64,000 nucleotides of DNA from Patescibacteria group bacterium (GCA_049325535.1 JBMOKY010000001.1:422611-486610); one strand, 5' to 3'. Shown: positions 4,737 to 59,383, counted from the first letter of the stretch. The notes: generated by a model not told the origin, from the letters alone. Numbers and translations are program-made.

Positions 4737-5715
4737 ACGATATGTGGTGAGTGGCTTCGGTATACGTCGCGCTCTGGGTGTGGATTTCAGTCACGATGTC
4801 TGTCAGCGCCTGCTCGATGGTAGCCAGTCCGGTGACATGCACCAGCCGGGCGCGGTACTGAGCGGCATGGGGGATGCCGCGCACGTAGGCGAGGAGGTGT
4901 TTGCGGATTTCCAGTGAGGCTCCCTTTTCACCCTTGAGTTCATACAATAAGCGGGCATGTTCCATGATCAGCGGGATTTTTTCTGAAAAAGTCGTAGGTT
5001 GCTTTTCCGCAAATACCCAGGGGTTGCCGATGGCCGCTTGGCCGATGAGGAATCCGTCGAGCCCGCGCGTTTTTTCTACCCCGTCGGGGATGGAGGTGAT
5101 GCCGCCATTCGCCAGTACCGGTATGGATACGTTTTGTTTGAGTTCATATATGGGGGCAAAATCAGCGGGGCAGTTATACGGTTCGTCATAGGTCCGGCCG
5201 TGTATGGCGATGGCCTGGGCGCCGGCGCGTTCGCACCCTTTCCCGAATTCAGTCAGGTCGTCGGCATGCGACCAGCCCAGTCGGGTTTTGACGGAAACAG
5301 GAAGATTGGTAGCTTGCGCGACGGCCTCAATGAGCCTGAACGCCAGATCATGATTTCTGCGCAGGGCCACACCGTGCTCCGACCGCACCACTTTTTTCGA
5401 TGGACAGCCCATATTGATGTCGATACCATCAAACCCCATGTGCTCGAGGTGGCGCGCGGCGGTGACGAACGTATCCGGGTTTTTTCCGAATATTTGGGCG
5501 ATAATCGGGCGCTCAACTTGGTCAAATGAAAATTTTTCCAGTACTTTTTTCGCATGATGATGCACGCCGTCAGCCGAAGTAAATTCAGTGTACACGAGAA
5601 TATTTGGATTTACCGATTTACAGACGCGGCGAAAGGCGCTATCTGTGTAGCCGTCCATCGGCGATAGCCCTATGCGTGGTGCGGTGGTTTGGTGCCACAT
5701 ATGTGGGTGATTCAT
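4726..5715 (-). CDS. dus: tRNA-dihydrouridine synthase
   Basis: Dus family motifs LSPMDGYTDSAFRR and INMGCP (catalytic Cys); 329 aa. Confidence 0.85.
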   Translation of the reverse strand: MNHPHMWHQTTAPRIGLSPMDGYTDSAFRRVCKSVNPNILVYTEFTSADGVHHHAKKVLEKFSFDQVERPIIAQIFGKNPDTFVTAARHLEHMGFDGIDINMGCPSKKVVRSEHGVALRRNHDLAFRLIEAVAQATNLPVSVKTRLGWSHADDLTEFGKGCERAGAQAIAIHGRTYDEPYNCPADFAPIYELKQNVSIPVLANGGITSIPDGVEKTRGLDGFLIGQAAIGNPWVFAEKQPTTFSEKIPLIMEHARLLYELKGEKGASLEIRKHLLAYVRGIPHAAQYRARLVHVTGLATIEQALTDIVTEIHTQSATYTEATHHISYAT

Positions 5716-5787
5716 GGCACTACCGTATCATGGTACCCCTGGCAGCGTCAACGGACGAGAGCGCCTCCTGAGTGCGCGCAACTGAGC

Positions 5788-6060
5788 CTATACCCTGATA
5801 ATGTGTCGTACGATCAGCAGGGGGATAATAATATAAAGGATAGTATCCCGGATCAGGTAGTACACAAATACCCCCAGGAGCAGTTTCCAGCCGTATTTCT
5901 TGAAGAGCAATGTGATTCTCCAGCGGAGCCGGCTGAACAGAGATGCCGCGGATGCTGCCGGAACCGGCTGTCGCGCGTCGCGGAGGATGTGCTGGGCCAG
6001 CAATTTCAGCCGACGGAATACGCCTGGTCGGACCGGAGCGCTAGCGGGCGCAGACATGGT
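5788..6060 (-). CDS. hypothetical small protein with C-terminal TM helix (start uncertain)
   Basis: ORF-track 5788..6102; hydrophobic C-terminus LLLGVFVYYLIRDTILYIIIPLLIV; no recognisable domain. Confidence 0.2.
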   Translation of the reverse strand, partial: TMSAPASAPVRPGVFRRLKLLAQHILRDARQPVPAASAASLFSRLRWRITLLFKKYGWKLLLGVFVYYLIRDTILYIIIPLLIVRHIIRV

Positions 6061-6466: not shown

Positions 6467-7315
6467 TCATGTCTGCCGTGCGTTCTGTGTGCTGTTCCGG
6501 GAAAACATTCTCCACCAGAGTACCGTGATGACAGACAAATAGAGCAGGTATGCGCTTACCTCCAGCAAGGTCGGGTTGCCATTATATCCAAACAGCCCCT
6601 TGATGATACTGCCCAGGTATCCATTTTCATGGAGCGGGGGATAGACACCCGTCTCAGTAACCGATGGATTAATATCCCATACTTGGTGTGACCAGAATGA
6701 GATCGCGCCGGCTTCCTGCAGCTCATGGATGCCATGAGCCAATAAACCCGCAGCAAAGAGCATCAACATGATGCCGGTAATGGCAAAAAACCGCGTCAGA
6801 TTGATTCGCAGAAAGCCCCGGTATAATCCGTATCCGATACTGATGGCGATGATGATGCCAATCAGTGCTCCGATAAAGCTATGGTCAGGATCTATCATAC
6901 GTGCCGATCCGAGGAAGATGGCCATTTCAATCCCTTCGCGCAGTATCGCTACCAGTACCACCCAAAAGATTCCCATCGGATGCGCGTTGGTGATATGTCG
7001 GTCCAAATCAGCGTGGATCTCCGCCATCAATTGTTGTCGTCGCATCATCCAAAAGATGAGCGTGGTGATCAATATCGCGCCGGTAATCATAGCTATCCCT
7101 TCGTAGAGCGCTTCCGCTGTTCCCTCAAATCCACCAGCCAGCCGGTCAAATGCAATCGCGCCAATAATACTGAGCGCCGTGCCGATCCCAACGCCCATCC
7201 AGGCCATGCGGATATAGCGTGATTGGCCGGTCCGATTGAGATATCCGATGACGATGCCGACAACGAGTGCCGCTTCGAGGGTTTCGCGGAGGCCGATGAT
7301 TAAACTGGTGAACAT
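6467..7315 (-). CDS. FTR1/EfeU family high-affinity iron permease
   Basis: Two REXXE motifs (RETLE, REGIE) in TM helices; 7-TM topology. Confidence 0.75.
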   Translation of the reverse strand: MFTSLIIGLRETLEAALVVGIVIGYLNRTGQSRYIRMAWMGVGIGTALSIIGAIAFDRLAGGFEGTAEALYEGIAMITGAILITTLIFWMMRRQQLMAEIHADLDRHITNAHPMGIFWVVLVAILREGIEMAIFLGSARMIDPDHSFIGALIGIIIAISIGYGLYRGFLRINLTRFFAITGIMLMLFAAGLLAHGIHELQEAGAISFWSHQVWDINPSVTETGVYPPLHENGYLGSIIKGLFGYNGNPTLLEVSAYLLYLSVITVLWWRMFSRNSTQNARQT

Positions 7316-7342
7316 AGGACGGGAAGTTTATTGGTTATTCAT

Positions 7343-7368
7343 GCAAAAAGAGCCTGAAATGAGGCTCT
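7343..7368 (-). terminator. rho-independent terminator for the upstream ATP-grasp operon
   Basis: Stem AGAGCCU/AGGCUCU with GAAAUG loop, followed on the minus strand by UUUUUG. Confidence 0.4.
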
Positions 7369-7521
7369 CTGATGCTGATTTCGCCGTTGAGATAGTACGA
7401 TAGGTACTACGCAACGGCGCCAATAAATAATTGTATCTTGACGGTGCCGGTAAACTGTAATAATACGTGCGGAGTCATCGTCGATGGCTTATTGATAACT
7501 ACTATCAGTATATCAGGATAG

Positions 7522-8490
7522 CTATTTTCGTACAAGTGGACGGTATGGTATTTCGAATAATGCCGCGAGCACCCGTTCGGTAATATCAGGGATGGGATTG
7601 AGTGTCGCGGAACTATGGATATCGATGGCGGGGTTATCATTTATTTCCGTGATGGCGCCTTTGGTTTTTTTATATGACTGGGTTATGTCGCTGGTCATCA
7701 AATCTACTCCAGCCAGCTCCAGGCCGAGCGTTTCGACCGCTCGGACGCACGCCTTGAGATTATCCGGATGCACGTGCCGCACGTCGAGATTGACAGTGGT
7801 TCCGCCGAGTGCCGCGTTTGCCCGATAGCGCAGGTACACCACCTCTTTTGGCACGGGAATGGTGTGCATGGTCATGTCTTGTTCCAGCAGGCGGTTTTTT
7901 ACCTCCGGATCGATTTTGATTTTCTTGGGCAGCTTCTTATTTGCCGATGTGATCAACTCTTCAATGGTGTGGACGCCGTCACCGACTACGCGGGCGGGAA
8001 GCCGGAGTGTCGCGGCCAGTATTTTTCCGTGCGCGATGAGAATTCGGTAGTCCTCGCCTTTATAGTATTTTTCAATGATGATTCGGCGGCTGTAGCGATG
8101 AGCTATATCGACCGCCTCGTGTACAGCCGCCAGCGACGTGATATTGACCGTGATGCCATCCCCCTGAAAACTATCGGCGGGTTTGACTACTACGGGCAGC
8201 TTAATTTTTTTTATGAATGCGTTTATCTCTTTTTTTGATTCGCGGTTGAATACCTGCTGTTCAAATACTGGCAGGTTGGCAGCCTTGAGTACGGCGTTGG
8301 TCGCAAATTTATATCTGCTGATGGCGGCGCTGACACTGTCATTTTTACTGCACATGGCATAAAAAAAACGGATTCGGTTTTTTTTGTGCAATATGTCTAC
8401 GGTTTGGTCATTAATCCGGACGGCGCGCAGGCCGATTTTTTTTGCTGCGGTAGCGTAGATCTGTGCGTACGGTCTTAGTTTTCGTGCCAT
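7522..8490 (-). CDS. ATP-grasp ligase, cyanophycin-synthetase-N-terminal-like (start taken at MARKLRPY)
   Basis: ORF-track 7522..8586; segment LPARVVGDGVHTIEELI and EINDNP resemble the CphA-type ATP-grasp domain; real start ~17 nt after the GNAT stop. Confidence 0.6.
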   Translation of the reverse strand: MARKLRPYAQIYATAAKKIGLRAVRINDQTVDILHKKNRIRFFYAMCSKNDSVSAAISRYKFATNAVLKAANLPVFEQQVFNRESKKEINAFIKKIKLPVVVKPADSFQGDGITVNITSLAAVHEAVDIAHRYSRRIIIEKYYKGEDYRILIAHGKILAATLRLPARVVGDGVHTIEELITSANKKLPKKIKIDPEVKNRLLEQDMTMHTIPVPKEVVYLRYRANAALGGTTVNLDVRHVHPDNLKACVRAVETLGLELAGVDLMTSDITQSYKKTKGAITEINDNPAIDIHSSATLNPIPDITERVLAALFEIPYRPLVRK

Positions 8491-8506
8491 AGTGTTTCTG
8501 GATGAG

Positions 8507-9028
8507 TTAGGGTTTAGATTCGGGCATGTGGTACCGAGTCCGGGTACTGCCGTCCGGCAGGGTGACGGTATCGAGGAACGCCCCACCCATTTTTTTGATA
8601 ATATTTAGAGAGGCGTGATTGTCAGGCTTACACACGATGATGGGCTCACGGATGCCCAGTTCCGCGCTTCTTCGCAGCAAGAGCGTCAGTGCCGCGGTGC
8701 CATAGCCCCGGTTACGGCATGATGGGCGGATGACATAGCCGATATGGCCATGGGATCGCATGTGTTCGTCATTGGGCTCAGGGCGTATACCGCCGCGTCC
8801 GACGACTACATCACCATCCATCAGTAAGTATTTATATTCTTGGGCGTAGGCTGGCGGAAGGTCAATGCCGCGGGCGCGGTTATGATAGCGCCGGACTACC
8901 TCGGTAAAATCATCATGCGCCAATTCATAAAAAAAATCGGCGTCAGGTTCCGGCTGGTCAAAAAATTCCTTAGCTGCTTCGAGGTAGGCACGTCGGTGGC
9001 GTTCATGGATGACTTCGAGGCGGAGCAT
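8507..9028 (-). CDS. GNAT family N-acetyltransferase
   Basis: 173 aa; acetyl-CoA binding pattern RNRGYGTAAL; tightly packed between two ATP-grasp genes. Confidence 0.7.
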   Translation of the reverse strand: MLRLEVIHERHRRAYLEAAKEFFDQPEPDADFFYELAHDDFTEVVRRYHNRARGIDLPPAYAQEYKYLLMDGDVVVGRGGIRPEPNDEHMRSHGHIGYVIRPSCRNRGYGTAALTLLLRRSAELGIREPIIVCKPDNHASLNIIKKMGGAFLDTVTLPDGSTRTRYHMPESKP

Positions 9029-9861
9029 TATGGGTAGCGCTGCTTAGATTTTTTGGCGAGGTAATCGATCATCATGCCGGCGATGTCAGTACCAGTCGTG
9101 TGCTGCGACCGGGCGAAGAAGCAGGGGAAATTTACCTCAGCGACATAGTGGCCATCATCGTCGAACAGAATATCCACCCCACCAGTTTCGATGCCCAGCG
9201 TCTGGACGGCGCGAATGGCGGTGCGCTGGAGCTCGGGGGAAAATTTTTTTGGCACGACCTGGGGGGTGCCCACATTTGATCGGAAGTCGCCGGATCGGGT
9301 TTGATACTCGATGCTATCGACGACCGATTCTCCGAGCACGATTAGTCTCGCTGAGCTCCGCGTCTGAATACACTGGCGCATGATGTAGTATTCTTTGGTG
9401 GCATCGAGATGATCCAGGACGGAAACCAGCGACTCGCGGGAGTCGAGGCGCATAACCCCAATGCCGTGGCTGCCGCCGATTACCTTGATAATCAGGGGGA
9501 AGCCGCCGACATATTCAATATATGCATCCAGGTGGGAGCGATTGACCCCGAAGATAGTTTTTGGAATCGGAATGCCCGCTTCATGGTGCAGCAGCGTGGC
9601 GTAGGGGTCGTTTGCCAGTCGTGTCTTGTCAGTATAAAATGTGACGACTTCCTGGTGCAACATATGGCGTTCCAGCGCGGTATATCGACTGCCCAATGTG
9701 ACACGGTACAGTAGCGTGCCGGGACTAAGGCGCGGCAAATTGCTAAAATCAACCGTATCAGCGTCGAGCGGTCGGTAGTGTATATTCCGCTGCCGGCAGG
9801 CGCGTTCGATCAGATCGTTCGTTTGTTTATTTCCTTCGTGGGTGATGACGACGCAGTCCAT
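9028..9861 (-). CDS. RimK-like ATP-grasp alpha-L-glutamate ligase family protein
   Basis: GGSHGIGV motif and RimK-like architecture; 277 aa; 1-nt overlap with GNAT gene. Confidence 0.7.
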   Translation of the reverse strand: MDCVVITHEGNKQTNDLIERACRQRNIHYRPLDADTVDFSNLPRLSPGTLLYRVTLGSRYTALERHMLHQEVVTFYTDKTRLANDPYATLLHHEAGIPIPKTIFGVNRSHLDAYIEYVGGFPLIIKVIGGSHGIGVMRLDSRESLVSVLDHLDATKEYYIMRQCIQTRSSARLIVLGESVVDSIEYQTRSGDFRSNVGTPQVVPKKFSPELQRTAIRAVQTLGIETGGVDILFDDDGHYVAEVNFPCFFARSQHTTGTDIAGMMIDYLAKKSKQRYP

Positions 9862-9953
9862 AGTACCTGATGAAAAGTAAAAAGTTCAGCGCTGCAACAT
9901 TCATAGTATACGTGGCTTTATCGCTTCGGACAAGTATGCCCTGATCTGCGCGA

Positions 9954-11702
9954 TTGTCCCGAAGGGAGAAAAATGGTATAGTAACGGTCAATTCTATGTC
10001 AAAAATTTGGCAGATTGCACCGCCGATTTCCGAGGATGTTCGCAACGCTTTTCCTGAAGTGCTGCCGCTGGTATTGCAGCTCCTGCACAATCGGGGACTC
10101 AAAACACAGCGTGAGATAGATGAATTCCTCAATCCTGATTATGGGGAAAATACCCATGATCCTTTTTTGTTTCGGCATATGGATCGGGCCGTTCAGCGGA
10201 TCATGACCGCAATACAGCGGGGCGAGCGCATTACAGTTCACGGTGATTATGACGCTGACGGGGTGTGCGCTACCGTTATCGCAGTTTCTGTGCTGCGGGC
10301 GCTCGGGGCTGATGTTACGGTGTATATCCCGCATCGCATGACCGAGGGCTATGGTCTGAATGCAAATACAGTCAATGAACTGGCCGCCCAGGGAACGACC
10401 GTAATCGTGACCGTCGATTGTGGCGTCAGCAATAAAGCCGAGGTCGTCCAGGCGCAGCAACGAGGCATTGACGTCATTATCACCGATCATCATGAGGAAC
10501 CGCCAGAATTACCCCCGGCGTATGCCATCATCAATCCCAGCGTGGCGGCTGATACGTATCCTTTTCGCACGCTGGCTGGATCCGGCGTGGCTTTTAAACT
10601 GGCCCAGGCGCTAGTTCGGCGCGACGGTGGGGTAAAACTCAAAGAGGGATTTGAAAAATGGCTGCTGGACGTGGTGGCCATCGGAACGATAGCCGATATG
10701 GTGCCTCTGGTCGGAGAAAATCGGACGCTGGCAAAATATGGATTAATCGTTCTGCAGAAAACGAAACGGCTGGGGTTGCGTGCGCTGGCGGAGTATTCAC
10801 GGTTTCCGCTGGAGAGCGTCGACAGTGCGGGTGTGGCATTTGGCATCGTTCCGCGTCTGAATGCGGCGGGGCGGATAGATCATGCCAATACTGCATTTGA
10901 GCTGCTGATGTGTGAGGATACCGGGGAGGCTCAGCGGGTGGCGGAGAGCCTGGAAAAGAATAATAAAGAGCGGCAGCGTATGACTGAACAGATGGTACAA
11001 GAGTCAAAACGCCAGCTGGGGGATGTGGGTGACGAGCGCATCCTATTTGCCATCGGAGATGACTGGTCAGCTGGATTGGTCGGGTTGGTCGCCGGTCGGC
11101 TGATGGATCACTATGACCGCCCGGTAATCGTCATGGGAAACCGCGGCGGCGAGATAATGGGATCGGGTCGTTCCATCGCTCCATTTGACATTACCGCAGC
11201 GCTGGTGAAATCCAGAGCATATCTGGATCGATATGGCGGTCATGCCAGCGCCTGTGGATTTACCCTGAAACCGGGAATGCTGGAACAATTTAAAGCGTCG
11301 ATGCGCAGTCTGGCGGGGCAGGCGATTTCCCCGCACGATATGACCAAGCGACTGGCTATAGATGCAGCTGTGTCGCTCGGAGATATCACCTGGGATATCG
11401 TCACTGCACTGGAAGGCTTCGAACCGTTTGGTCAGGGCAATCCAGCAGTTCGTTTTGCCGCGCGGCAATTACGGGTGGCTGATTTCCAGAAAGTGGGCAC
11501 CGATGGCAAGCATCTTCGGCTGCATGTCGAACAAGACGGGGTCACGAAGAAATTGATCGCTTTTGGCTATGGAAATTCCTGGGGTAACGAACTGGCCATC
11601 GGCGATATGATTGACGCTGTATTCGAATTAGCAGTTAATGAGTGGAATGGTAATCGCGAGCTGCAACTGAAATTAGTGGATATCCAGAGGAACACACTAT
11701 GA
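9954..11702 (+). CDS. recJ: single-stranded-DNA-specific exonuclease RecJ
   Basis: DHH family motifs HGDYDADGVCAT and DHHE; DHHA1 region; 582 aa. Confidence 0.85.
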   Translation: MSRREKNGIVTVNSMSKIWQIAPPISEDVRNAFPEVLPLVLQLLHNRGLKTQREIDEFLNPDYGENTHDPFLFRHMDRAVQRIMTAIQRGERITVHGDYDADGVCATVIAVSVLRALGADVTVYIPHRMTEGYGLNANTVNELAAQGTTVIVTVDCGVSNKAEVVQAQQRGIDVIITDHHEEPPELPPAYAIINPSVAADTYPFRTLAGSGVAFKLAQALVRRDGGVKLKEGFEKWLLDVVAIGTIADMVPLVGENRTLAKYGLIVLQKTKRLGLRALAEYSRFPLESVDSAGVAFGIVPRLNAAGRIDHANTAFELLMCEDTGEAQRVAESLEKNNKERQRMTEQMVQESKRQLGDVGDERILFAIGDDWSAGLVGLVAGRLMDHYDRPVIVMGNRGGEIMGSGRSIAPFDITAALVKSRAYLDRYGGHASACGFTLKPGMLEQFKASMRSLAGQAISPHDMTKRLAIDAAVSLGDITWDIVTALEGFEPFGQGNPAVRFAARQLRVADFQKVGTDGKHLRLHVEQDGVTKKLIAFGYGNSWGNELAIGDMIDAVFELAVNEWNGNRELQLKLVDIQRNTL

Positions 11703-12106: not shown

Positions 12107-12978
12107 TCGTCAATATTATTCTGGGATGTTTAGTGTTGAGTTTTCTCGCTATCGGGATGGCGTGGTTTGTCTCATCTCGGATTATCATGCAGCCACGAGA
12201 GGTGCATGAGGAAGAATGGCGCCAATATCATTTGCATCGTGAACACATATCGTTTCGTTCCGCTGACGGGCTGCTTTTGGACGGCGCATTCATCCATGGG
12301 TCACACGGAGCTACCATCATACTGCTCCACGGGTACGGCCGTTCAAAAGAACAGATGTTGCCGCAGGCGCGCCTGCTGAATGACGCCGGGTATTCCATTT
12401 TCATGTTTGATTTTCGTGCGTCGGGCAAAAGCGAGGGTAAATATATTACTTTTGGCGGGCGGGAGGTAGCCGATCTCGAGGGAGCTATTCAGTATTTAAA
12501 AACGCGCATCGATGTAAATATGGACCGTATCGGGGTACTGGGATTTTCCATGGGCGGCGCGGTGGCGATTTTGAAATCCGGGGATTTGCCGATCAAGGCG
12601 CTGGTGGTCAATTCAGCCTTTGCCCGGTTCAAATCGGTTATCTGGCAAAATTTTCGTCTATATCTGAAGGGGATTCCATTTTTTCCACTGGGGTATCTGA
12701 CGTTATTGGTCATGAAACTACGCACCGGCATATACTATTCCGCCATCAATCCCATACGATCCATGCAGAAACTAAAGGCGATCCCGCTGCTCATTATCCA
12801 CGGCGCGCATGACCGGCGTATTCCGGTCGAGGATGCCATGGAATTTCATCGCAGCGCCCCGTGGATTAAAGAGTTCTGGCTAGTGCGCCGTGCCGAACAC
12901 ACGGACGTGTATACGGTTACCAAAGACGAGTACGAACACAAGGTACTCAGTTTTTTCCGCAAATATTTACTCCACTAA
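12103..12978 (+). CDS. alpha/beta-fold hydrolase with N-terminal TM anchor
   Basis: GFSMGG nucleophile elbow, HGYGRS oxyanion region; 291 aa. Confidence 0.6.
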   Translation: MIVNIILGCLVLSFLAIGMAWFVSSRIIMQPREVHEEEWRQYHLHREHISFRSADGLLLDGAFIHGSHGATIILLHGYGRSKEQMLPQARLLNDAGYSIFMFDFRASGKSEGKYITFGGREVADLEGAIQYLKTRIDVNMDRIGVLGFSMGGAVAILKSGDLPIKALVVNSAFARFKSVIWQNFRLYLKGIPFFPLGYLTLLVMKLRTGIYYSAINPIRSMQKLKAIPLLIIHGAHDRRIPVEDAMEFHRSAPWIKEFWLVRRAEHTDVYTVTKDEYEHKVLSFFRKYLLH

Positions 12979-13662
12979 GAAGCGCTCGGGGAAATCAGTA
13001 AAGATACCATCGACATGGCAACCCGTGACTCGATCGTAGTCGGCAGGTGCATTGACGGTATACGTAAACACTTTCAAACCGGCCTGGTGTGCTGCGGTCA
13101 CCAGTTCGTTTGTTATTGATTTGTTATCTGGATTGACCGAATACGCCCGCATGGCACTGGCGTATGCAATTGGTTGGGCTGGCATGTCACTGCCAAAAAG
13201 TACGCCGATGGCAATATCAGGCTGTAATTGTTTTAACTCTCGCAATTGCGGGTGATCAAATGATGAAATGAGAAATTGACGGAGGGTCCAACTGTGTTTT
13301 TGAACATACTCGGAAATTTTTTGCGCTACTGGATGTGCCGTTCCCACACCTTTCAATTCAATATTTATTGAACAGCGGTGATCAAGTAGTATGAGTAATT
13401 CGTCCAATGTAGGCACATATGCGCCACCGCCGGCATCGAGCTGCTGAAGTTCGTGGCGTGTCAGGTCTGAAACTGCACCCGTACCGTTTGTTGTTCGATC
13501 AACTGTTTCATCGTGGATAACGATGAGATCCCCGGTTTTGCATACATGTACATCACATTCTACCATGCTCACGCCCATTTTCTGTGCAGCAGCGAAAGAT
13601 GGGAGGGTATTCTCAGGGCGGGAACCGGCGGCACCCCGGTGGCCGATGATAAGTGGTTTTGT
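12967..13662 (-). CDS. glycerophosphodiester phosphodiesterase (start at MTKPLIIGHRG; ORF-track N-terminal extension rejected)
   Basis: GDPD signature IIGHRGAAGSRPENTLPSF plus ECDVH; the extended ORF 12967..13896 would overlap the rnpB promoter. Confidence 0.7.
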   Translation of the reverse strand, partial: TKPLIIGHRGAAGSRPENTLPSFAAAQKMGVSMVECDVHVCKTGDLIVIHDETVDRTTNGTGAVSDLTRHELQQLDAGGGAYVPTLDELLILLDHRCSINIELKGVGTAHPVAQKISEYVQKHSWTLRQFLISSFDHPQLRELKQLQPDIAIGVLFGSDMPAQPIAYASAMRAYSVNPDNKSITNELVTAAHQAGLKVFTYTVNAPADYDRVTGCHVDGIFTDFPERFLVE

Positions 13663-13695
13663 CATACGTGGGAAGTATAGCCTACGGATTTGATA

Positions 13696-13724
13696 TTGAC
13701 AAAAATGCCTTATTTTTCTATACT
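13696..13724 (+). promoter_or_regulatory. sigma70-like promoter for rnpB, TTGACA-17 nt-TATACT
   Basis: Consensus -35, 17-nt spacer, good -10, ending ~7 nt before the RNase P RNA 5' end. Confidence 0.45.
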
Positions 13725-13731
13725 CCATCAT

Positions 13732-14137
13732 GCCCAAGTAAACTGGATGATTGCACGTTACATCATGTAATGTGAGGAAAGTCCGAACACCTCCGCCTAT
13801 ATAGGGCGGAACGTGGATAGTCGTGAAAGACGACCGAGGTGCAGCAACTAGAAGGTCTATAGTCTTCTGGATGTTGTCTTCAGGGAATAGTGTCACAGAG
13901 ACAATACCGCCCCGTCATCCGACAGGGTAAGGGTGAAAAGAGTGGGGTAAGAGCCCACAGGTTTGACCGGTGACGATCGAACGTGAAAAACCCTATCCGG
14001 TGCAAGACCAAGTAGGGTGCCCATTGGGCATCGGGTTGGTCGCATGATTCCGATGGTAACGTCGGAACCAGATAGATAATCATCGTCCACCGTTGGTGGA
14101 TACAGAATTCGGCTTACAGGTTTACTTGGGCACAACC
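13732..14137 (+). ncRNA. rnpB: RNase P RNA, bacterial type A
   Basis: P4 motif GAGGAAAGUCCGAACAC; P10-12 region GGGUAAGGGUGAAAAGAGUGGGGUAAGAGCCCAC; 3' motif ACAGAAUUCGGCUUACAG; P1 pairing GCCCAAGUAAAC / GUUUACUUGGGC. Confidence 0.8.
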
Positions 14138-14169: not shown

Positions 14170-15561
14170 ATGAAAAAGTCAGAGCTGTTGTTTAGCGCAA
14201 TTTTGGTGCCCGTCGACTACTGCATGGTAGTTGTGGCGGGTATTTTTGCGTATAATCTTCGTTTCTTCTCGTTTTTTACCGATATTCGCCCGGTTTTTTA
14301 TGAGATTGTATTTAAAGATTTCTTTACCATTGTCTTGTCCGTGGCAGCCATCTATGTGATTATATTTGCCCTTTCCGGTTTGTATGCAATCAAAAGTACG
14401 CGTCGCCTTTTGGATGAAATGTCCCGAGTATTCGTCGCTGCCACCGCGGCAATTGCCATCGTTATCATCATCATTTTTTTTCAGCGTGAGCTATTCTCAT
14501 CACGATTTATCATATTGTCCGGCTGGATTCTGACGGTGATTCTGGTCATCATCGGACGATCTTTGGTCAGGTATATCCAGCGGGTATTTTTGAAACGGGG
14601 AGTGGGATTGCACAATATTGTGATCATCGGGAATGATAAAACCACCGAGGATATCGTGAAGCAAATTTATCAGCGACCAACGCTGGGATATCGCATCGTG
14701 GAGCGGAGCGTCGATTTTTCCGGTGACATTGAGGAGCGATTGAAAGAAAAGATGAAAACCGTCTCAATCGATGAGCTTATCCTCGGTGACACGAGCGTCG
14801 ATAAATCTCAGGTACTGGCCATGCGGAATTTTTGTACGGATTATCATATCACGTATAAATACGCCACGGACCTTTTCGAAGTCCAGCCGACCCATATCGA
14901 GATCAATACTATTGCCGATATCCCTATCATTGAAGTGAAGCGTACTCGGCTCGATGGATGGGGCAAAATTGCCAAACGGATTGTGGATATCGTCGGATCG
15001 GGAGTCGGATTGATTATACTTTCTCCGTTTTTGCTGCTGATCGCTCTCGGTATCATGATTGATTCGCAGGGTGGGGTGTTTGTCAAACTGGAGCGGGTCG
15101 GGTACAAAGGCAAAGCATTCCGATTGTATAAATTTCGTTCCATGGTACGTAATGCGCACGCGCTGAAACAGGATTTGGTACAGATGAATGAACGAGCCGA
15201 TGGTCCGCTGTTTAAAATAAAAAATGATCCCCGCATTACTCGCGTCGGGCGTTTTTTGCGAAAGACCAGCCTCGATGAGCTGCCGCAGCTGTATAATGTG
15301 CTCAAGGGCGAGATGAGCCTGGTCGGACCGCGTCCGCATGAACCAGAGGAAGTGTCACGATATGAACGGTGGCAGCGTAAGCTGCTGACAATCAAGCCCG
15401 GCATGACAGGTTTGGCCCAGATATCCGGCCGTTCCGATCTGCGATTTGAAGACGAGGCAAAATTGGATATTTACTATATTGAGAATTGGACCCCGACTCT
15501 TGATTTCCGTATCGTTATCAAAACCCCCTGGGTAGTGCTAACCGGCACGTCTGCCGCATAG
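14170..15561 (+). CDS. polyprenyl-phosphate sugar phosphotransferase (WbaP/bacterial sugar transferase family), initiating enzyme
   Basis: Four N-terminal TM segments plus C-terminal PF02397-type domain with KGEMSLVGPRP motif; 463 aa. Confidence 0.85.
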   Translation: MKKSELLFSAILVPVDYCMVVVAGIFAYNLRFFSFFTDIRPVFYEIVFKDFFTIVLSVAAIYVIIFALSGLYAIKSTRRLLDEMSRVFVAATAAIAIVIIIIFFQRELFSSRFIILSGWILTVILVIIGRSLVRYIQRVFLKRGVGLHNIVIIGNDKTTEDIVKQIYQRPTLGYRIVERSVDFSGDIEERLKEKMKTVSIDELILGDTSVDKSQVLAMRNFCTDYHITYKYATDLFEVQPTHIEINTIADIPIIEVKRTRLDGWGKIAKRIVDIVGSGVGLIILSPFLLLIALGIMIDSQGGVFVKLERVGYKGKAFRLYKFRSMVRNAHALKQDLVQMNERADGPLFKIKNDPRITRVGRFLRKTSLDELPQLYNVLKGEMSLVGPRPHEPEEVSRYERWQRKLLTIKPGMTGLAQISGRSDLRFEDEAKLDIYYIENWTPTLDFRIVIKTPWVVLTGTSAA

Positions 15562-15564
15562 CGT

Positions 15565-16665
15565 ATGAAACTGGCATTAGTCCATGATCATCTAAACCAG
15601 CTCGGGGGGGCTGAACGAGTACTCAAAGCATTTTGTGATCTGTATCCGGATGCGCCGATGTACACGCTGATTTATGATGCGGACAAGACAAATCATGTTT
15701 TTGACAACACAACGATTAAAGAATCGTTTATTGCCCGGTTCCCGTTTGCCCGGAAGAAATTTCGCTGGTACCTGCCGATGATGGTTCCCGCCACCGAAAG
15801 TTATGCGCTGAACGGGTATGACGTGGTTTTATCGGACAGCTCGGGTTTGGCCAAGGGGGTCATCACCTCGCCCCGTTCGCTCCATATATGTTATTGCCAC
15901 ACGCCGACACGGTATCTCTGGAGTGACCATAATGAAATTATTGATAAACTGGAACGGAATAAATTAGTCGGGCGTCTGTCCCTCTTATACCGCAGCTATT
16001 TGCGTGTCTGGGATCGGCAAGCAGCTGATCGAGTGGATGTTTTTATCGCCAATTCCCAGTTTGTCGCTAAACGCATAAAGAAATATTACCAGCGGGAGAG
16101 CATAGTCATCCCACCGCCGGTTCTGACAGATTTGTTTCAGATAAGCCCAACCGTTGAGGACTATTACCTCATCGTGTCCCGGCTCCGTCCCTATAAACGC
16201 GTTGATCTGGCTATTCGTGCGTTCAATAAACTCGGTTTACCGCTGTACATTATCGGCGATGGGGAAGAGGAGGAGCGGTTACGCGCAATGGCCGGTCCGA
16301 CCATACGATTCCTCGGCTATGTGTCTGATGAAAAGAAGCGCACGTATATGGCTCGATGCAAGGCGCTGATTCATCCCCAGGAAGAGGATTTTGGCATTAC
16401 ACCAGTAGAGGCTATGGCCGCTGGGCGGCCAGTTATCGCCTATGGCGTCGGCGGTGCTTTGGAAACCGTCGTTTCCGGAAAAACCGGCGTGTTATTTGAC
16501 GAGCAATCATGGGAGGCTCTGGCTGATACGGTCATCCACTTTAAGTCGGATGCATTTGATCCCGCGGCAATCAGGCAACATGCGCGGCAATTTGACATCG
16601 AGCGATTTAAGGAGCGTATCAGTGAAGTAGTCACGAAAACTTGGCAAGAATATAAAAATCGGTAA
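15565..16665 (+). CDS. GT4 family glycosyltransferase
   Basis: C-terminal EDFGITPVEAMAAGRPVIA (E-X7-E-like GT4 motif); 366 aa. Confidence 0.8.
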   Translation: MKLALVHDHLNQLGGAERVLKAFCDLYPDAPMYTLIYDADKTNHVFDNTTIKESFIARFPFARKKFRWYLPMMVPATESYALNGYDVVLSDSSGLAKGVITSPRSLHICYCHTPTRYLWSDHNEIIDKLERNKLVGRLSLLYRSYLRVWDRQAADRVDVFIANSQFVAKRIKKYYQRESIVIPPPVLTDLFQISPTVEDYYLIVSRLRPYKRVDLAIRAFNKLGLPLYIIGDGEEEERLRAMAGPTIRFLGYVSDEKKRTYMARCKALIHPQEEDFGITPVEAMAAGRPVIAYGVGGALETVVSGKTGVLFDEQSWEALADTVIHFKSDAFDPAAIRQHARQFDIERFKERISEVVTKTWQEYKNR

Positions 16666-16680
16666 TACTATAGTATATAT

Positions 16681-17322
16681 ATGTCACATGAAATATCCGT
16701 TCAAACGCCTTTTCAGCGATACCGCTGGTTGGTCATCGCCATCACCGTCGGTGGCGCCTTGGCGGCACTGGTATTTGCCCTGATTACCCCGGTCCAGTAT
16801 GATACTTCGCTGGCTTTTTTTATCAATCGGACGAATACGCAGGTGACGACCGAATACCAGTACGACGGGTATTATGCCATTCAGGCATCCGATCTTTTTG
16901 CCCAGACAGTGATGAGCTGGTTTTTGACACCGTCGGTACTGCTCGACATATATGGCCAGGCCGGCATCGATCCGGCAATTTCATCTATCGAGGAGCTGAC
17001 GTCTCGCTTCAAGACGCGGCAGTATTCGCCGCAAAACATCGTCGTCCGCTATCAGGAGCGTGATCGTGATACCGCGCAAAAAATAGCTATTGCCATAACT
17101 GACGTGGTTGAGAAAAAAGGAGCTGACGCAAACAAGAACATTGAGCAGGAAGCGCTGTTTGATGTCCAGGGAGGCGTCCCGGTGGTCGTCGAAAAACGAC
17201 CGAGCATTGTACTGAATGCCGGTATTGGCCTGGTGGCCGGATTTATTTTGAGCGTGGTTCTCGCCTATAGTCTAGATTATCTTCGCCGACCGGCGCAGCC
17301 GAAACAAACCCAACTGCCATAA
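16681..17322 (+). CDS. Wzz-like chain-length determinant domain protein (short)
   Basis: N-terminal TM plus Wzz-type segment, C-terminal TM; 213 aa; embedded in glycan locus. Confidence 0.45.
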   Translation: MSHEISVQTPFQRYRWLVIAITVGGALAALVFALITPVQYDTSLAFFINRTNTQVTTEYQYDGYYAIQASDLFAQTVMSWFLTPSVLLDIYGQAGIDPAISSIEELTSRFKTRQYSPQNIVVRYQERDRDTAQKIAIAITDVVEKKGADANKNIEQEALFDVQGGVPVVVEKRPSIVLNAGIGLVAGFILSVVLAYSLDYLRRPAQPKQTQLP

Positions 17323-17325
17323 TCC

Positions 17326-18453
17326 ATGCGTATCGGGATCGATATTCGATCGCTCATCGAAACGCATCCCTCGGGGGTTAGTCACTATACCCGGGAGTTA
17401 TTGCAGCATCTGCCGCTGATTGGTGGGGGGCATGAGTTCCGGCTTTTTTGTAATTCCGCGGCGGAGGTACCTGGTTGGCTGACGACCCTCATCGCCCGCT
17501 ATCCGCAGTATCACCTGGTTCACCGGCGCATGCCCAATAAACTTTTCAATCTGATGCAGTGGGCCATGGGGCTGCCGGCGGTGGATCGGTTGGCCGGTAC
17601 GGTCGATGTGTTCCTCATGCCAAATATCATATTTGCTGGCATCAGTCGCATGACGCCGCTCGTCATCACCGCTCATGACGCCTCGTTTACCTACCCGGGG
17701 TTTTATCAATTACGATCGCGATGGTGGCACCGGGTAGTCAATCCCGGGCGCTGGTATCGGCGAGCTGATCATATCCTGGCCGTATCGGAGAGCACACGGC
17801 GGGACCTGGTGATGCATTTCGGGATTCCAGAGCAGAAGGTGAGCGTGGTTCATCTCGGGGTGGATATGGCGCGATTTCAGTCAGTGGCCGCCACCCAGAT
17901 CGAGCAGGTTCGCAGCAGCTTCCGGCTGGATCGACCGTACGTCTTGTTTATGGGTACGGTCATGGATCGCAAAAACATTGATACCATACTGCAGGCATGG
18001 CGCGCATTGACCGGACCCGGGGATGGGGGATATGATTTAGTCCTCGCCGGATACATTCAGGAGGCGCGATTGATACCGGACGATGATCGTATCCGGGCAC
18101 TCGGATATATCCCGGAACCGCTCAAACCAGCGCTATATGCCGGGGCTACGGCGTTTGTGTATCCATCATTTTTTGAAGGTTTTGGTCTGCCGGTATTGGA
18201 GGCGATGGCATCAGGGGTGCCGGTTATTACCAGTGCTGCTACGTCGCTCGGAGAAGTGGCTGGGGACGCTGCGCTCCTGGTGAATCCGTACCGGGCTGAT
18301 GAGCTGGCCGATGCGTTACGCGTTGTATTGCGCGACCAGGCCCTGCGTGACATGCTGATTCGGCGCGGGCGGGAGCGTGCGTCGCTTTTTTCCTGGGAAC
18401 GGACCGCCCGGGAGACATTAGCGGTCCTCAGAGCACAAGGAACACGATCATGA
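17326..18453 (+). CDS. GT4 family glycosyltransferase
   Basis: EGFGLPVLEAMASGVPVI motif; 375 aa. Confidence 0.8.
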   Translation: MRIGIDIRSLIETHPSGVSHYTRELLQHLPLIGGGHEFRLFCNSAAEVPGWLTTLIARYPQYHLVHRRMPNKLFNLMQWAMGLPAVDRLAGTVDVFLMPNIIFAGISRMTPLVITAHDASFTYPGFYQLRSRWWHRVVNPGRWYRRADHILAVSESTRRDLVMHFGIPEQKVSVVHLGVDMARFQSVAATQIEQVRSSFRLDRPYVLFMGTVMDRKNIDTILQAWRALTGPGDGGYDLVLAGYIQEARLIPDDDRIRALGYIPEPLKPALYAGATAFVYPSFFEGFGLPVLEAMASGVPVITSAATSLGEVAGDAALLVNPYRADELADALRVVLRDQALRDMLIRRGRERASLFSWERTARETLAVLRAQGTRS

Positions 18454-19565
18454 TTATAGGAATAGACGCTCGATTTTATGGCACCGGCGCCAAAGGACTT
18501 GGCCGATATACTCAGAAACTGATAACTCATCTGGAGGATATTGACCATGAAAACGATTACGTCATTTTTTTGCGTCGTGAAAATTGGGATGAGTATCGGC
18601 CGCAGAATCCACGCTTCCGGAAAGTTTTGGCGGATTTCCGCTGGTACACGCTCCGAGAACAGATTTTTTTTCCGTTGGTAGTGCGCCGGGAACGAGTCGA
18701 CGTCATGCATTTCACGCATTTCAATGTGCCGCTGTGGTATGTCGGGAAATTTATTGTGACTATTCACGATTTAATTCTGACGAAGTACCCGACCCAGCGC
18801 GCATCGACTCTCGGCCCGCTCTTGTACCGGATCAAGCATGCTGCATATTTACTGACCATACGCCGCGCCATCAGGCGTGCGAGCCGGATTATTGCCGTGT
18901 CTCAGTATACCAAGGCTGACATCGTAGCTCATTTTGGCGTCGCTCCGGAAAAAATTAGCGTAACTTATGAAGCGGTCGATGTTCCGGTCCAGGAGGAACC
19001 AAATGACCAATCGGTGCTCGACCGGTATCACGTTGTCCAACCTTATCTACTCCATGTCGGAAACGTCTATCCGCATAAAAATATCGAGCGGCTGCTCGAG
19101 GCACTGGCGCAGGTCAGGCAATCCCACCCGCAGTTGTCGCTCGTGCTCGTCGGGAAGGAGGATTATTTCATCAATCGGATGAAAAAATTGGTGCAATCGC
19201 GCGGGCTTGCCGGGGCGGTGATTTTTACCGGCTATGTACCGGATGGATCATTGCCATCGCTGTATCGCCATGCGTCGGCATACGTGTTTCCGTCGCTATG
19301 CGAGGGGTTTGGCCTGCCTGGATTGGAGGCGTGCGCTTTTGGCGTTCCGGTCGCGGCAAGTAATAATTCGTGCCTTCCGGAAATTCTCGGCTCGGCGGCT
19401 GTATATTTTGATCCCCATGATGGAGCGGCTATGGCCGTCGCTATTCGCCAATTGATCGAGAATCGATCGGTAGCCGACCGCTTGATCGCCCTCGGCCATG
19501 AACAGGTGCGCGCATTCAGTTGGAAGGTGATGGCGGAGCGGACGAGGGCATTGTATAGTCAATAA
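18450..19565 (+). CDS. GT4 family glycosyltransferase
   Basis: EGFGLPGLEACAFGVPVA motif; 4-nt overlap with upstream GT4; 371 aa. Confidence 0.8.
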   Translation: MIIGIDARFYGTGAKGLGRYTQKLITHLEDIDHENDYVIFLRRENWDEYRPQNPRFRKVLADFRWYTLREQIFFPLVVRRERVDVMHFTHFNVPLWYVGKFIVTIHDLILTKYPTQRASTLGPLLYRIKHAAYLLTIRRAIRRASRIIAVSQYTKADIVAHFGVAPEKISVTYEAVDVPVQEEPNDQSVLDRYHVVQPYLLHVGNVYPHKNIERLLEALAQVRQSHPQLSLVLVGKEDYFINRMKKLVQSRGLAGAVIFTGYVPDGSLPSLYRHASAYVFPSLCEGFGLPGLEACAFGVPVAASNNSCLPEILGSAAVYFDPHDGAAMAVAIRQLIENRSVADRLIALGHEQVRAFSWKVMAERTRALYSQ

Positions 19566-51696: not shown

Positions 51697-52428
51697 TTAA
51701 GGTTTTTTTTGCTGGACGTGAGTATTTATTGAGGAAATTTCAGGGTTTGCCGTGAGCCACCGTATCACTTGCGGCGTATCAATAAGTTTCCCTGGATGGT
51801 ACCATTGGTTGAAAATTATTTTCATGAGTTCGTAATCATCCACGGTATCCAGTGTTAGTCTCAATTCAGGATGGGCATATGACTGTGGCATAACGACGTT
51901 GTGGATGGTAAATAATTTGGACGGATTTTCCCGCATTATTAATGTGACGTGCTCACGCAAACGTTCGGTATGTGCATTCTCGTCAGCTTTCTTTAGTGCC
52001 CCTTCAGTGAAAGCTTCAACATCAAGTCCGTGTGGAATAATTCTTGATAAAACATTACTGGCATAGTCATACCCTGGCAGCTCATGGATGACCATCTCGA
52101 TAATAGTAGGGTCAATGAGTGGGCAATCTGCGGTGATGCGAACCAGTATAGGCGCCGGGTAGTGATTAGCTGCTAATCGATACCGAGACAGGACGTCAGA
52201 TAAATCACCGCGCACACAGAAAGTCCCCATTTCCTGACAGTAGCGTTCAATCGCGTCGTCGGTTTTGTCAGTTGAAGTTGCGACAACAACGTGTGCTTGA
52301 GGTACGTGTTTGCAACGGTCAACAATATGCCCAAGCACGGGTTTATCCGCAAGTGGTAATAAAACTTTACCCGGTAAACGGGTAGAGCTCATGCGTGCTT
52401 GAATGAGGATGGTGATTCTAGATGCCAT
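51697..52428 (-). CDS. pseF: CMP-pseudaminic acid synthetase-type cytidylyltransferase
   Basis: ILIQARMSSTRLPGKVLLPL N-terminal motif of the CTP_transf_3/NeuA/SpsF family; 243 aa. Confidence 0.75.
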   Translation of the reverse strand: MASRITILIQARMSSTRLPGKVLLPLADKPVLGHIVDRCKHVPQAHVVVATSTDKTDDAIERYCQEMGTFCVRGDLSDVLSRYRLAANHYPAPILVRITADCPLIDPTIIEMVIHELPGYDYASNVLSRIIPHGLDVEAFTEGALKKADENAHTERLREHVTLIMRENPSKLFTIHNVVMPQSYAHPELRLTLDTVDDYELMKIIFNQWYHPGKLIDTPQVIRWLTANPEISSINTHVQQKKP

Positions 52429-52438
52429 AGTATTATTT

Positions 52439-53488
52439 TTATCGTGAAATATCCGTCCGACGCAGAGGGGTGCCTGCTTTCAAACTTCGTCGAGCTTTTT
52501 TCCGCAATATCGTGGGTAGTAAGATGGGAGGGAGTCCAGCATTCGGTCTGATGGAGCGGACATTTTCATACGTGAATCGATCTCCAGCTCTGATGTCTTT
52601 TACGGCAAAGAGTGATCGGCTGAATAGGCGGCTTTTTTTTGTTTTTTCCGAAAGAGTGTAGCGTATTTTTCCGATTGCTTGCTCCGCATCGCGGACCGAG
52701 CGTACCATGTTCCGGAATTCATCTGGTTCTAGGGAAAAAGAAGCGTCAGGCCCGCCGAGGGAGCGTTTCAAGATCAGGTGTTTTTCTATGATTTTTGCGC
52801 CAAGACTCACTGCCGCGATTGGCGCGACGATACCGGTTGTATGGTCTGACAAGCCGGTAATGACGCGGAAGCGTTTTTTCATATCCGGCATAGTTGCTAG
52901 ATTTGCTTCGGCTAATGGAGCCGGATAGGCTGAGGTGCATTGGAGCAAGGCAATAGCATAATTACCTTTTCGTCGACATGCCCGGACCGCTGCCGTAATA
53001 TCAGCTACTGTAGCAATGCCAGTTGAAATGATCATCGGTTTTCCTTGAGCGGCCGTGTATTCTATGAGTGGTATGTCCGTAATTTCAAATGAAGCAATTT
53101 TATAGGCCGGAACGTTCATTTTTTTTAAAAAGTCCACAGCCGTTATGTCAAATGGGGATGAGAAGCATTCCATGCCTAATTGGTTTGCTAATTTTTTTAG
53201 TTTTGGCTGCCATTGCCATGGCGTATGTGCTTCCTGGTACAGGTCGTAGAGTGTCCGGCCATCCCAAATTGTGTCGCTATTGATGCGGAAGTATTTTGTG
53301 TCACTTTTCATCGTGATAGTATCGGCAGTATATGTTTGTAATTTAACTGCGTCAGCGCCAGCCTTTTTTGCAGCACGTATTGTCCGTACCGCAATATCAA
53401 ACCGCTGGTTATGGTTAGCTGATAATTCTGCAATGATAAATGCCGGTGAATGATCACTAATTTCTTTTTTTCCGATTCGAATTTTCAT
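52439..53488 (-). CDS. pseI: pseudaminic acid synthase (NeuB family)
   Basis: FIIAELSANHNQRFDIAVRTIRAAKKAGADAVKLQTY NeuB TIM-barrel signature plus C-terminal SAF domain; 349 aa. Confidence 0.85.
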   Translation of the reverse strand: MKIRIGKKEISDHSPAFIIAELSANHNQRFDIAVRTIRAAKKAGADAVKLQTYTADTITMKSDTKYFRINSDTIWDGRTLYDLYQEAHTPWQWQPKLKKLANQLGMECFSSPFDITAVDFLKKMNVPAYKIASFEITDIPLIEYTAAQGKPMIISTGIATVADITAAVRACRRKGNYAIALLQCTSAYPAPLAEANLATMPDMKKRFRVITGLSDHTTGIVAPIAAVSLGAKIIEKHLILKRSLGGPDASFSLEPDEFRNMVRSVRDAEQAIGKIRYTLSEKTKKSRLFSRSLFAVKDIRAGDRFTYENVRSIRPNAGLPPILLPTILRKKARRSLKAGTPLRRTDISR

Positions 53489-53491
53489 AAA

Positions 53492-53977
53492 TTAAACGGA
53501 AAAAATATATTTTTTTGCTTGTTGTTCTCGCACCACTACCGTAGCCTCAAACTGGAAGCCGGCCTTTTCAAAAAGCTTGATGGATGGAGTATTATCAGGC
53601 TTGATGAATGCCTCTATGCGCATAATTTCGGGATGAAGCGACAGGTAATGTTTAATTGCCAACTGAAGTAATGGTAGGGCAAGCTTTCTGCCACGAAATT
53701 GTGCGGTAACACTAATACCGATTATGGCCACGCCATCGGCGCAGTCAAAACGTACTTGACCCGCAAATCGCCCCTCATACTCAGCGATTAAAAATGTACC
53801 GGATGGATCATGCAGCTTACGATTGAACCATGTAATATGTTGGGGTAGGGAAATGGCCGATGAGCTAAAGGAGTTCTTTCGCACAACCGGATCCATCGCA
53901 AGGTCATATACAGTCCGGGTGTCAGCGCGTGTCACTTTTCTGATAAGTATTTTTTCCGGCTGTATACTATTGGTCAT
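53492..53977 (-). CDS. pseH: GNAT N-acetyltransferase, PseH-like
   Basis: 161 aa GNAT embedded between pseG and pseI. Confidence 0.6.
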   Translation of the reverse strand: MTNSIQPEKILIRKVTRADTRTVYDLAMDPVVRKNSFSSSAISLPQHITWFNRKLHDPSGTFLIAEYEGRFAGQVRFDCADGVAIIGISVTAQFRGRKLALPLLQLAIKHYLSLHPEIMRIEAFIKPDNTPSIKLFEKAGFQFEATVVVREQQAKKYIFSV

Positions 53978-56394: not shown

Positions 56395-56409
56395 AGAGTA
56401 GAGAACAAC

Positions 56410-57558: not shown

Positions 57559-57578
57559 AAACTTTTGTAATCGGGTAA

Positions 57579-58211: not shown

Positions 58212-58217
58212 GGCAGT

Positions 58218-59375: not shown

Positions 59376-59383
59376 GTGACGTG

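Follow-up and report, generated by a model that had tools for sequence, protein, structure and literature searches.

We describe a compact operon of ligase genes at positions 7,343 to 9,861 of a 64,000-nucleotide stretch of DNA from a Patescibacteria group bacterium (GCA_049325535.1, JBMOKY010000001.1:422611-486610; the whole stretch is hereafter called the window), and find that the locus is a variant on the known theme of multi-ligase peptide-assembly operons. It is neither a version of Ngg, the bifunctional enzyme for N-acetylglutaminylglutamine, split into separate genes, nor a conserved triad. The operon consists of three tightly packed minus-strand genes, encoding a RimK-like ATP-grasp ligase (A), a small GNAT N-acetyltransferase (B), and a free-standing ATP-grasp homologue of the G domain, the backbone-elongating domain, of cyanophycin synthetase CphA (C). 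These domain calls, already made in the original prediction, were borne out by Pfam and NCBIfam profiles, and profile and PDB searches placed neither ligase in the D-Ala-D-Ala ligase (Ddl) or carbamoyl-phosphate synthetase (CPSase) subfamilies. At least two distinct carboxylate-amine ligases are encoded together, with conserved co-occurrence. The explanation that we favor, as a possibility falling somewhat short of even, is that the operon is a cassette of modular design, in which carboxylate-amine ligations follow one another to make a short hetero-oligopeptide, with N-acetylation as an optional cap. This reading is based on the retention of catalytic residues in A and C, the complete fold of C, the tight packing of the genes together with a terminator, the adjacency of A and C in related genomes, and a second pairing of the same kind on an unrelated contig (L026). 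The three proteins (MFZ6035927-29, on a 1.15-Mb contig) are named by NCBI as hypothetical protein, GNAT family N-acetyltransferase and ATP-grasp domain-containing protein, respectively, and the nearest named relatives belong to Candidatus Kerfeldbacteria. Because orthologues of each gene share order and synteny in other genomes, A, B and C are not chance open reading frames (ORFs).

Protein C matches the cyanophycin synthetase model TIGR02068 over model positions 161-472 of 862 (3.1e-67), at 227 bits against an 850-bit cut-off, and matches more weakly the ATP-grasp halves of GshF (2.2e-43) and Ngg (TIGR03103, 1.5e-41); its best PDB match is CphA1 (6.7e-47). An AlphaFold2 (AF2) model of C (pLDDT 92.3) was superposed on the substrate-bound G domain of TeCphA1 (7wae) with a TMq of 0.87 and a root-mean-square deviation of 2.6 Å (TMq 0.79 for GshF), and in this model C keeps the complete G-domain fold, i.e., Gcore, Glid and G-omega. 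The residues for ATP, Mg and acyl-phosphate are invariant in the C family: K61, K103, R149, D263 and E282 of C correspond to K220, K261, R309, D431 and E450 of TeCphA1. R163 and N225, which correspond to the carboxylate-binding R323 and N394, are also invariant. In TeCphA1, E215 is assigned to the primer Arg side chain, H267 to the P-loop, R458 to the incoming Asp's alpha-carboxylate, and R323/N394 to a carboxylate (PMC9427784). The CphA1-specific E215, H267 and R458 are changed to A/I/L/S, Q/C and D in C orthologues, and to A, G and Y in a paralogue of C found in related genomes (C2); the GshF-type residues at three discriminating positions (Leu, Tyr/Phe and Met/Tyr) do not occur in C. As the catalytic residues are kept and the discriminating residues are changed, C is predicted to work as a ligase, within the CphA-G/GshF/Ngg clade, and to have its own specificity, and C2 to have a different one. 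The substrate pocket of C2 departs from that of C at A227 (to H), A288 (to G) and D290 (to Y), which fits the addition of a different amino acid. D290 of C, at the position of CphA1 R458, was considered as an indication of a cationic nucleophile; this idea was dropped, because RimK, whose nucleophile is Glu, has Glu268 at the equivalent loop position.

The C family is tiny. Among 5.8 billion proteins, only 11 cluster representatives were found at an identity of at least 50%, and the next relatives were full-length cyanophycin synthetases at 33-35%. Pattern scans returned two true C loci and one Mollicutes GshF from 185,579 species genomes, and two C loci from 241 million metagenome records; both scans rest on two peptide patterns, which divergent relatives may escape. 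As far as sequence comparison can tell, these proteins are a clade-restricted family of stand-alone CphA-G-like ligases confined to Kerfeldbacteria.

A complete G domain (TMq 0.87) that keeps R163 and N225, counterparts of the residues that hold a carboxylate of the incoming Asp in TeCphA1, would also suit a cyanophycin-like reserve or another hetero-poly-amino-acid made by split enzymes. C would then elongate an Asp-type backbone, A would polymerize Glu or decorate the backbone with it, the composition would differ according to the paralogues present, and a cap would come from the GNAT. Two reports describe polymerization of Glu from the free amino acid in vitro by RimK and by MyfB (PMC10375531; PMC8141765), which speaks for such chemistry. 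We nevertheless judge this explanation distinctly improbable. C has neither the polymer-tethering N domain nor the M domain, the residues E215, H267 and R458 are all replaced, and no cyanophycinase gene was found in the Kerfeldbacteria loci. Moreover, equivalents of R163 and N225 are present in GshF as well (sequence L011), and hence these residues are not Asp-specific.

Protein A matches the Pfam RimK model (9.6e-30), and its best PDB matches are the RimK proteins of Pseudomonas and E. coli (3e-28), but it falls under both RimK cut-offs (TIGR00768, 118.2 vs 143.4 bits; NF007764, 103.2 vs 331 bits). The 205 homologues of A found at E <= 1e-10 are spread over phyla of the Candidate Phyla Radiation (CPR), with identities of 41-50% in Woese-, Gracili-, Sacchari-, Doudna-, Jackson-, Beckwith- and Moranbacteria. 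In an alignment of 120 family members to E. coli RimK, whose numbering is used here, the catalytic residues K141, R189, R211, N213, D248, E260 and N262 were kept in at least 117 sequences. Residues 48-291 of the E. coli reference were confirmed by a HMMER alignment; the N-terminal R8 and S14 lie outside this range. We tested the contact positions R8, R64, S68 and H215/R216, together with the loop N(A/S)SPGLEG; the roles of these residues in binding poly-Glu were taken from Pseudomonas RimK (PMC10092738). The poly-Glu contacts are not kept in the A family: R8 and R64 vary, Gly takes the place of H215 in 108 of the 120 sequences, the H215/R216 loop is changed, and N(A/S)SPGLEG gives way to NFPC(F/Y)F(P/A)R, in which Cys and Arg are nearly invariant. 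From these alignments, A is a member of a distinct RimK-like subfamily that spans the CPR and has an active-site loop of its own. Of three genomes inspected outside Kerfeldbacteria, two (one Gracilibacteria and one Woesebacteria contig) carry the A gene as a solitary gene among housekeeping genes, with no envelope-gene neighbors in either contig. Since A is CPR-wide and solitary in other phyla, it is C and B that look like additions, and the earlier description of A as the added, second RimK-type ligase has to be turned around.

The properties of A also bring in RimK-style protein tailing, in which the tail would also receive a residue of another kind from C, and the GNAT would act like RimI, RimJ and RimL, acetylating either this ribosomal protein or a different one. 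RimK proteins are the nearest solved relatives of A, and A has been kept at the identities given above over divergent CPR phyla, often as a solitary gene among housekeeping genes. Enterobacterial rimK behaves likewise (PMC10092738). Against tailing stand the failure of A at the RimK cut-offs (118 vs 143 and 103 vs 331 bits) and, across the 120 aligned sequences, the lack of conservation of the poly-Glu contacts R8, R64, H215 and R216 and the replaced loop. We know of no characterized member of the CphA-G/GshF/Ngg clade that modifies a protein, which we also count against this explanation. No linked candidate substrate gene was found; tblastn with E. coli S6 detected no rpsF gene in the window or in loci L001-L017. 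Taken together, we consider protein tailing unlikely, but a serious contender.

Protein B exceeds the Pfam cut-offs of Acetyltransf_3 (4.1e-14; 53.9 bits, cut-off 25.4) and Acetyltransf_1 (5.8e-12; 46.4 bits, cut-off 20.7). Its AF2 model (pLDDT 72.8) gave a Foldseek probability of 1.0 to many GNATs, and its fold neighbors SpeG, phosphinothricin acetyltransferase (PAT), AAC(6')-Ib, RimJ, RimL and MccE score alike (TM ~0.6, 12-19% identity). The match to Acetyltransf_3, the presence of RimJ and RimL among the fold neighbors, and a weak match of the B orthologue at locus L012 to the RimI model (2e-5) are consistent with protein tailing. Orthologues of B within the same cluster are found at L003 (35% identity) and L012 (37% identity, E 1e-40). 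A k-mer search returned three relatives only, and P0071, among the typing candidates, is a solitary actinobacterial-type gene. The closest relatives in an exhaustive search include proteins of two to three tandem GNATs, such as P0192 and P0193 (521-526 aa) and some 20 others with lengths of 330-360 aa.

Gene order in related genomes separates a constant pair from a variable third member. A and C are adjacent in all seven Kerfeldbacteria lineages, in the orders A-B-C (window/L001/L002; L003/L004), A-A2-C (L007/L009, where A2 is a 296-aa paralogue of A), A-C-C2 (L005/L010/L016; L015; and L014, whose contig stops after C2), and A-C-C2-B (L012/L013/L017). C and its paralogues occur only beside A in these loci. 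L012 has a GNAT that is specifically homologous to B but is placed elsewhere within the cluster, which suggests that B is a recurrent though dispensable member. At every locus, the cluster is flanked by recJ on one side and by Dus/NUDIX, with or without FTR1, on the other; FTR1 is missing in half of the loci. The co-occurrence of the three genes therefore held for the two ligases, present in 7 of 7 lineages, and not for the acetyltransferase, present in 3 of the 6 that can be judged.

These gene orders also bear on the view that the genes share no common pathway and that the GNAT, and perhaps C, are merely packed beside a housekeeping RimK-like gene in a compact genome. The GNAT belongs to a generic family, is absent from half of the judged lineages, and evolves rapidly: between the window and L003, A and C are 56-61% identical, compared with 35-37% for the B-type GNAT (L012 included). 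The neighboring Dus gene, which overlaps or abuts the cluster in L012 and L015, is packed equally tightly in some genomes. However, GNAT orthologues occur at two places within the ligase cluster (in the orders A-B-C and A-C-C2-B) but never outside it, C and its paralogues keep to the side of A, and the L026 contig repeats the pairing. We thus regard the absence of a common pathway as clearly unlikely.

In the cassette mechanism that we propose, A and C would each use ATP to phosphorylate the C-terminal alpha-carboxylate of an acyl or peptidyl substrate as it grows, and the activated carboxylate would then be coupled to the amino group of a free amino acid, such that a short hetero-oligopeptide would arise from A and C acting in turn. 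Acetylation of the first residue at its free amino group by the GNAT would give either an N-blocked starter or a capped product. A and C would form a fixed core, whereas the third position would be filled by an acetyl cap, a second A-type ligase or a second C-type ligase, and the products of related species would differ by one unit. The product in this genome is predicted to be an N-acetyl di- or tripeptide, probably containing an acidic residue. We infer a shared molecule for A, B and C, as well as the order of steps, the substrates and a free small-molecule product. Characterized relatives are known to activate N-blocked carboxylates, namely, a peptide or protein C-terminus for RimK and CphA1, gamma-Glu-Cys for GshF, N-acetyl-Gln for Ngg, and N-acetyl-Asp for RIMKLA/B (PMC9427784, PMC8070244, PMC3872778). 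The original idea of ligases plus an acetyltransferase making a short N-acetylated peptide is still the leading hypothesis, but its acetyl part has become optional, and nothing supports an osmolyte role specifically.

Several results weigh against this mechanism. An extra ligase (A2 or C2) stands in for the GNAT in the three lineages that lack it, and acetylation therefore cannot be an obligatory first step. B comes from a large family of generic character (in the exhaustive search, 8691 proteins at E <= 1e-3, many of them tandem GNATs), and its fold neighbors do not separate small-molecule from protein acetylation. Because the seven lineages with A and C belong to one narrow clade with preserved synteny, their adjacency is essentially one evolutionary event, and the L026 contig is the sole independent replicate. 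CPR genomes are compact, so that tight packing is weak evidence. In addition, the solitary occurrence of A outside Kerfeldbacteria implies a function that needs neither B nor C and would fit a universal substrate such as a ribosomal protein. The wide and often solitary distribution of A, the dispensability of the GNAT and the restriction to one narrow clade thus weaken the case for a dedicated three-gene pathway and keep protein tailing alive.

Two further clusters place the A-C pair in a wider context. The nearest stand-alone outgroup of C is P0027 (34% identity), encoded on the unrelated contig L026 (GC 43%). There (L026:5280-9932), a divergently transcribed PepE-like S51 peptidase gene accompanies genes for a RimK-like, a C-like and a BacD/LAL-type ATP-grasp ligase and a 158-aa membrane protein. 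The RimK-like ligase belongs to a different subfamily (23% identity to A), and its gene precedes the C-like gene. By homology, L026 is an independent second example in which a RimK-like ligase is paired with a G-like one and accompanied by a third, and the cluster looks like a candidate for peptide synthesis and turnover. S51 is the peptidase family of both PepE and cyanophycinase, and PepE cleaves Asp-X dipeptides. The L026 peptidase is divergent, with the PepE dipeptidase model as its only match, and gives a hint of Asp in the product; its association with the ligase pair is also a point for a cyanophycin-like polymer.

On the second contig (L018, Parcubacteria), an A-family gene (5001-5885) adjoins the gene for a 426-aa free-standing ligase (6547-7827, plus strand) that matches the M (Mur-ligase) domain of CphA only (TIGR02068 positions 481-850, 6.6e-54), a pairing that again favors a polymer. 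Judged by these profile matches, different CPR lineages pair the same RimK-like family with different CphA1 "halves." It may be, although we hold this to be rather unlikely, that free-standing CphA-type modules of CPR bacteria (G-like in Kerfeldbacteria, M-like in the Parcubacteria contig) and the CPR-wide RimK-like ligase make an undescribed hetero-oligo- or poly-amino acid, whose composition would be re-programmed by swapping A2, C2 and the acetyl cap and which could serve as a nitrogen/carbon reserve or an envelope polymer.

The L018 genes, together with one for a polysaccharide deacetylase, lie inside a cluster of GT2, GT4 and GT9 glycosyltransferases. The proximity of an A-like gene to a deacetylase and a Mur-ligase-like enzyme is in line with a peptide side chain on an envelope glycopolymer or peptidoglycan precursor, in which the ligases would lengthen a peptide on a sugar-linked carboxylate, and either an amino sugar or this peptide would be N-acetylated by the GNAT. 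The window, too, is rich in glycan genes (Bac_transf and GT4 at 14-19.6 kb, an ALGX/MBOAT pair, and a NeuB-type cluster at 51-63 kb). Nevertheless, in Kerfeldbacteria the recJ, RNase H, hydrolase, GDPD and RNase P RNA genes part the ligase cluster from the glycan genes on one side, FTR1, Dus and NUDIX lie on the other, and A has no envelope neighbors in Gracilibacteria or Woesebacteria. This explanation appears very improbable to us.

Comparison with characterized systems clarifies what is shared and what is not. Ngg makes an N-acetyl dipeptide from free amino acids by acetylating and ligating Gln (PMC8070244), and resembles the present locus in joining a GNAT to an ATP-grasp ligase of the same clade as C. 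However, Ngg is one fused protein that works with AsnO, whereas here the genes are separate, with neither AsnO nor the associated peptidase, a RimK-like ligase is extra, and the GNAT is dispensable in sister lineages. B is unlike the GNAT half of Ngg and matched no NCBIfam model at E <= 0.01, TIGR03103 included. C reaches 142.6 bits against the TIGR03103 cut-off of 569, over model positions 239-528 only, and is nearer to CphA1 (227 bits) and GshF. No AsnO-type amidotransferase, whose absence had been noted from the start, is encoded at any of the loci; within the window, genes of the amidotransferase type were found only near 55-56 kb, as part of the nonulosonic-acid cluster. These findings rule out a split Ngg, and the suggestion that the operon follows the domain logic of that enzyme in separate genes is not upheld.

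The G domain of CphA1 and CphA2 is the best sequence and fold match of C, with the catalytic and carboxylate-binding residues in common; C differs in being a G domain alone, without an N domain or a Mur-ligase M domain and without a Mur-ligase gene in the cluster, and in its large-loop motif (RANAALGGTT vs RATANLSTGG in CphA1). GshF, the second-best match of C, joins an amino acid to an N-blocked dipeptide at its C-terminal carboxylate, but no gamma-glutamylcysteine ligase domain or gene is present here and the discriminating residues of GshF are not in C. Among characterized and solved proteins, RimK is the one closest to A; it shares the fold and the catalytic residues of A and is a stand-alone enzyme of ~280-300 aa that extends a C-terminal alpha-carboxylate; A scores below its cut-offs, does not keep the poly-Glu contacts, has the CPR-specific loop, and lacks RimA/RimB partners. 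In mammals, RIMKLA/B ligate Glu to N-acetyl-Asp in the synthesis of N-acetyl-aspartyl-glutamate (PMC3872778). With NAT8L they parallel the proposed cassette, in that an acetyltransferase makes an N-acetyl amino acid and a RimK-like ligase extends it with Glu, but this system is eukaryotic, its genes are unlinked, it has no G-like ligase, and its homology to A is at the level of the RimK family only. MyfA and MyfB of methylofuran synthesis, two different ATP-grasp ligases, act sequentially on one chain (PMC8141765), as A and C would. Operonic ATP-grasp ligases with GNATs have been read as systems of successive ligation plus an acyl cap, as relayed in PMC4431377, which cites Iyer et al. 2009. 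In the literature searched, in which the work of Iyer et al. 2009 is represented by what PMC4431377 relays, we did not find this particular pairing, in which a RimK-like ligase of the CPR is joined by a free-standing CphA-G-like ligase and by a third gene that can be swapped.

The features of the locus and other features of the window are listed in Table 1.

Table 1. Positions of the operon, its putative signals and other features, counted from the first nucleotide of the window
Feature	Position	Strand	Description
Gene A	9028-9861	minus	RimK-like ATP-grasp ligase, 277 aa
Gene B	8507-9028	minus	Small GNAT N-acetyltransferase, 173 aa
Gene C	7522-8490	minus	Free-standing CphA G-domain homologue, ATP-grasp, 322 aa
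Terminator-like hairpin	7343-7370	minus	AGAGAGCCU-CAUUUC-AGGCUCUUU, then UUGC; 9-bp stem, 6-nt loop, U-run; from sequence and fold
Second stem-loop	7382-7419	minus	CGCCGUUG...CAACGGCG; 8 bp with inner 6-bp helix; between C stop and terminator
Sigma-70-like promoter match	9905-9933	minus	TTGTCC-17-TATACT; consensus scan only
Second sigma-70-like promoter match	9973-10002		Consensus scan only
MBOAT and ALGX pair	6-2727	plus	Polysaccharide O-acetylation type; syntenic in related Kerfeldbacteria loci
RNase P RNA class A	13735-14132	plus	217 bits, full length
Bac_transf priming transferase and three GT4 genes	14170-19565	plus	Syntenic in related Kerfeldbacteria loci
Nonulosonic-acid-type cluster	51697-63082	minus	NeuB-family synthase, cytidylyltransferase, Polysacc_synt_2 dehydratase, two DegT aminotransferases, HisH-like/HisF-like pair, GFO/IDH/MocA oxidoreductase

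The minus-strand arrangement and tight packing of the three genes were confirmed: the stop codon of A overlaps the start codon of B (TAATG at 9028), and B and C are spaced by 16 nt. The mechanical ORF of C reaches back as far as a GTG at 8586, but gene callers and NCBI use the ATG at 8490, in agreement with the orthologues. The first promoter match lies within the short divergent region that separates A from recJ. The intrinsic terminator proposed at the end of the operon is real as a structure: the fold of 7330-7440 (minus strand), which contains both hairpins, has an energy of -40.1 kcal/mol (z = -5.8 vs shuffles). A consensus terminator scan missed the hairpin at 7343-7370, most likely because part of the U-run sits within the stem.

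No conserved small ORF or carrier-protein gene was found beside the cluster, where the gap between C and FTR1 is 206 nt in the window and 68 nt in L003; a system of ribosomally synthesized and post-translationally modified peptides (RiPPs) or one based on a carrier protein was ruled out, as no conserved small ORF adjoins the cluster. PADLOC gave no match for A, B or C as an anti-phage defense system. In genomes without FTR1, Dus lies on the same strand and overlaps the last gene of the ligase cluster or is at most 12 nt away (L012:9838-11284; L015:1888-3785; L005:8942-10834). Dus may be co-transcribed with the cluster in these genomes; in the window, the FTR1 gene and the terminator intervene. 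A functional link to recJ, FTR1, Dus, NUDIX or the alpha/beta hydrolase was not adopted, because the synteny is limited to one narrow clade, FTR1 is often absent, and a terminator follows C. Elsewhere in the window, the RNase P RNA overlaps the 5' extension of a mechanical ORF (12967-13896), and the real GDPD gene is therefore shorter than this ORF (232 aa in the gene calls of L001). GC content is 0.39-0.47 over ~42-62 kb and ~0.46-0.55 (mostly at least 0.49) in the first 40 kb.

The biosynthetic capacity of CPR bacteria is minimal, and hence a conserved set of two to four amide-bond ligases, costly in ATP, likely makes something important. The present analysis defines two groups of ligases: a RimK-like subfamily that is spread over the CPR and marked by an active-site loop of its own, and a very small family of stand-alone CphA-G-like ligases, restricted to one clade, whose specificity residues match neither CphA1 nor GshF. 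The natural module-swap series A-B-C, A-A2-C, A-C-C2 and A-C-C2-B offers a ready design for assigning the addition made by each enzyme. If A were the S6-tailing enzyme of CPR bacteria, the finding would be an ordinary one. If, instead, a peptide metabolite or polymer new to science were made, the range of chemistry known for ATP-grasp ligases would be widened and new biocatalysts would be gained, and, should the undescribed polymer exist, it would represent mix-and-match peptide synthesis in ultra-small symbionts, independent of both ribosomes and non-ribosomal peptide synthetases.

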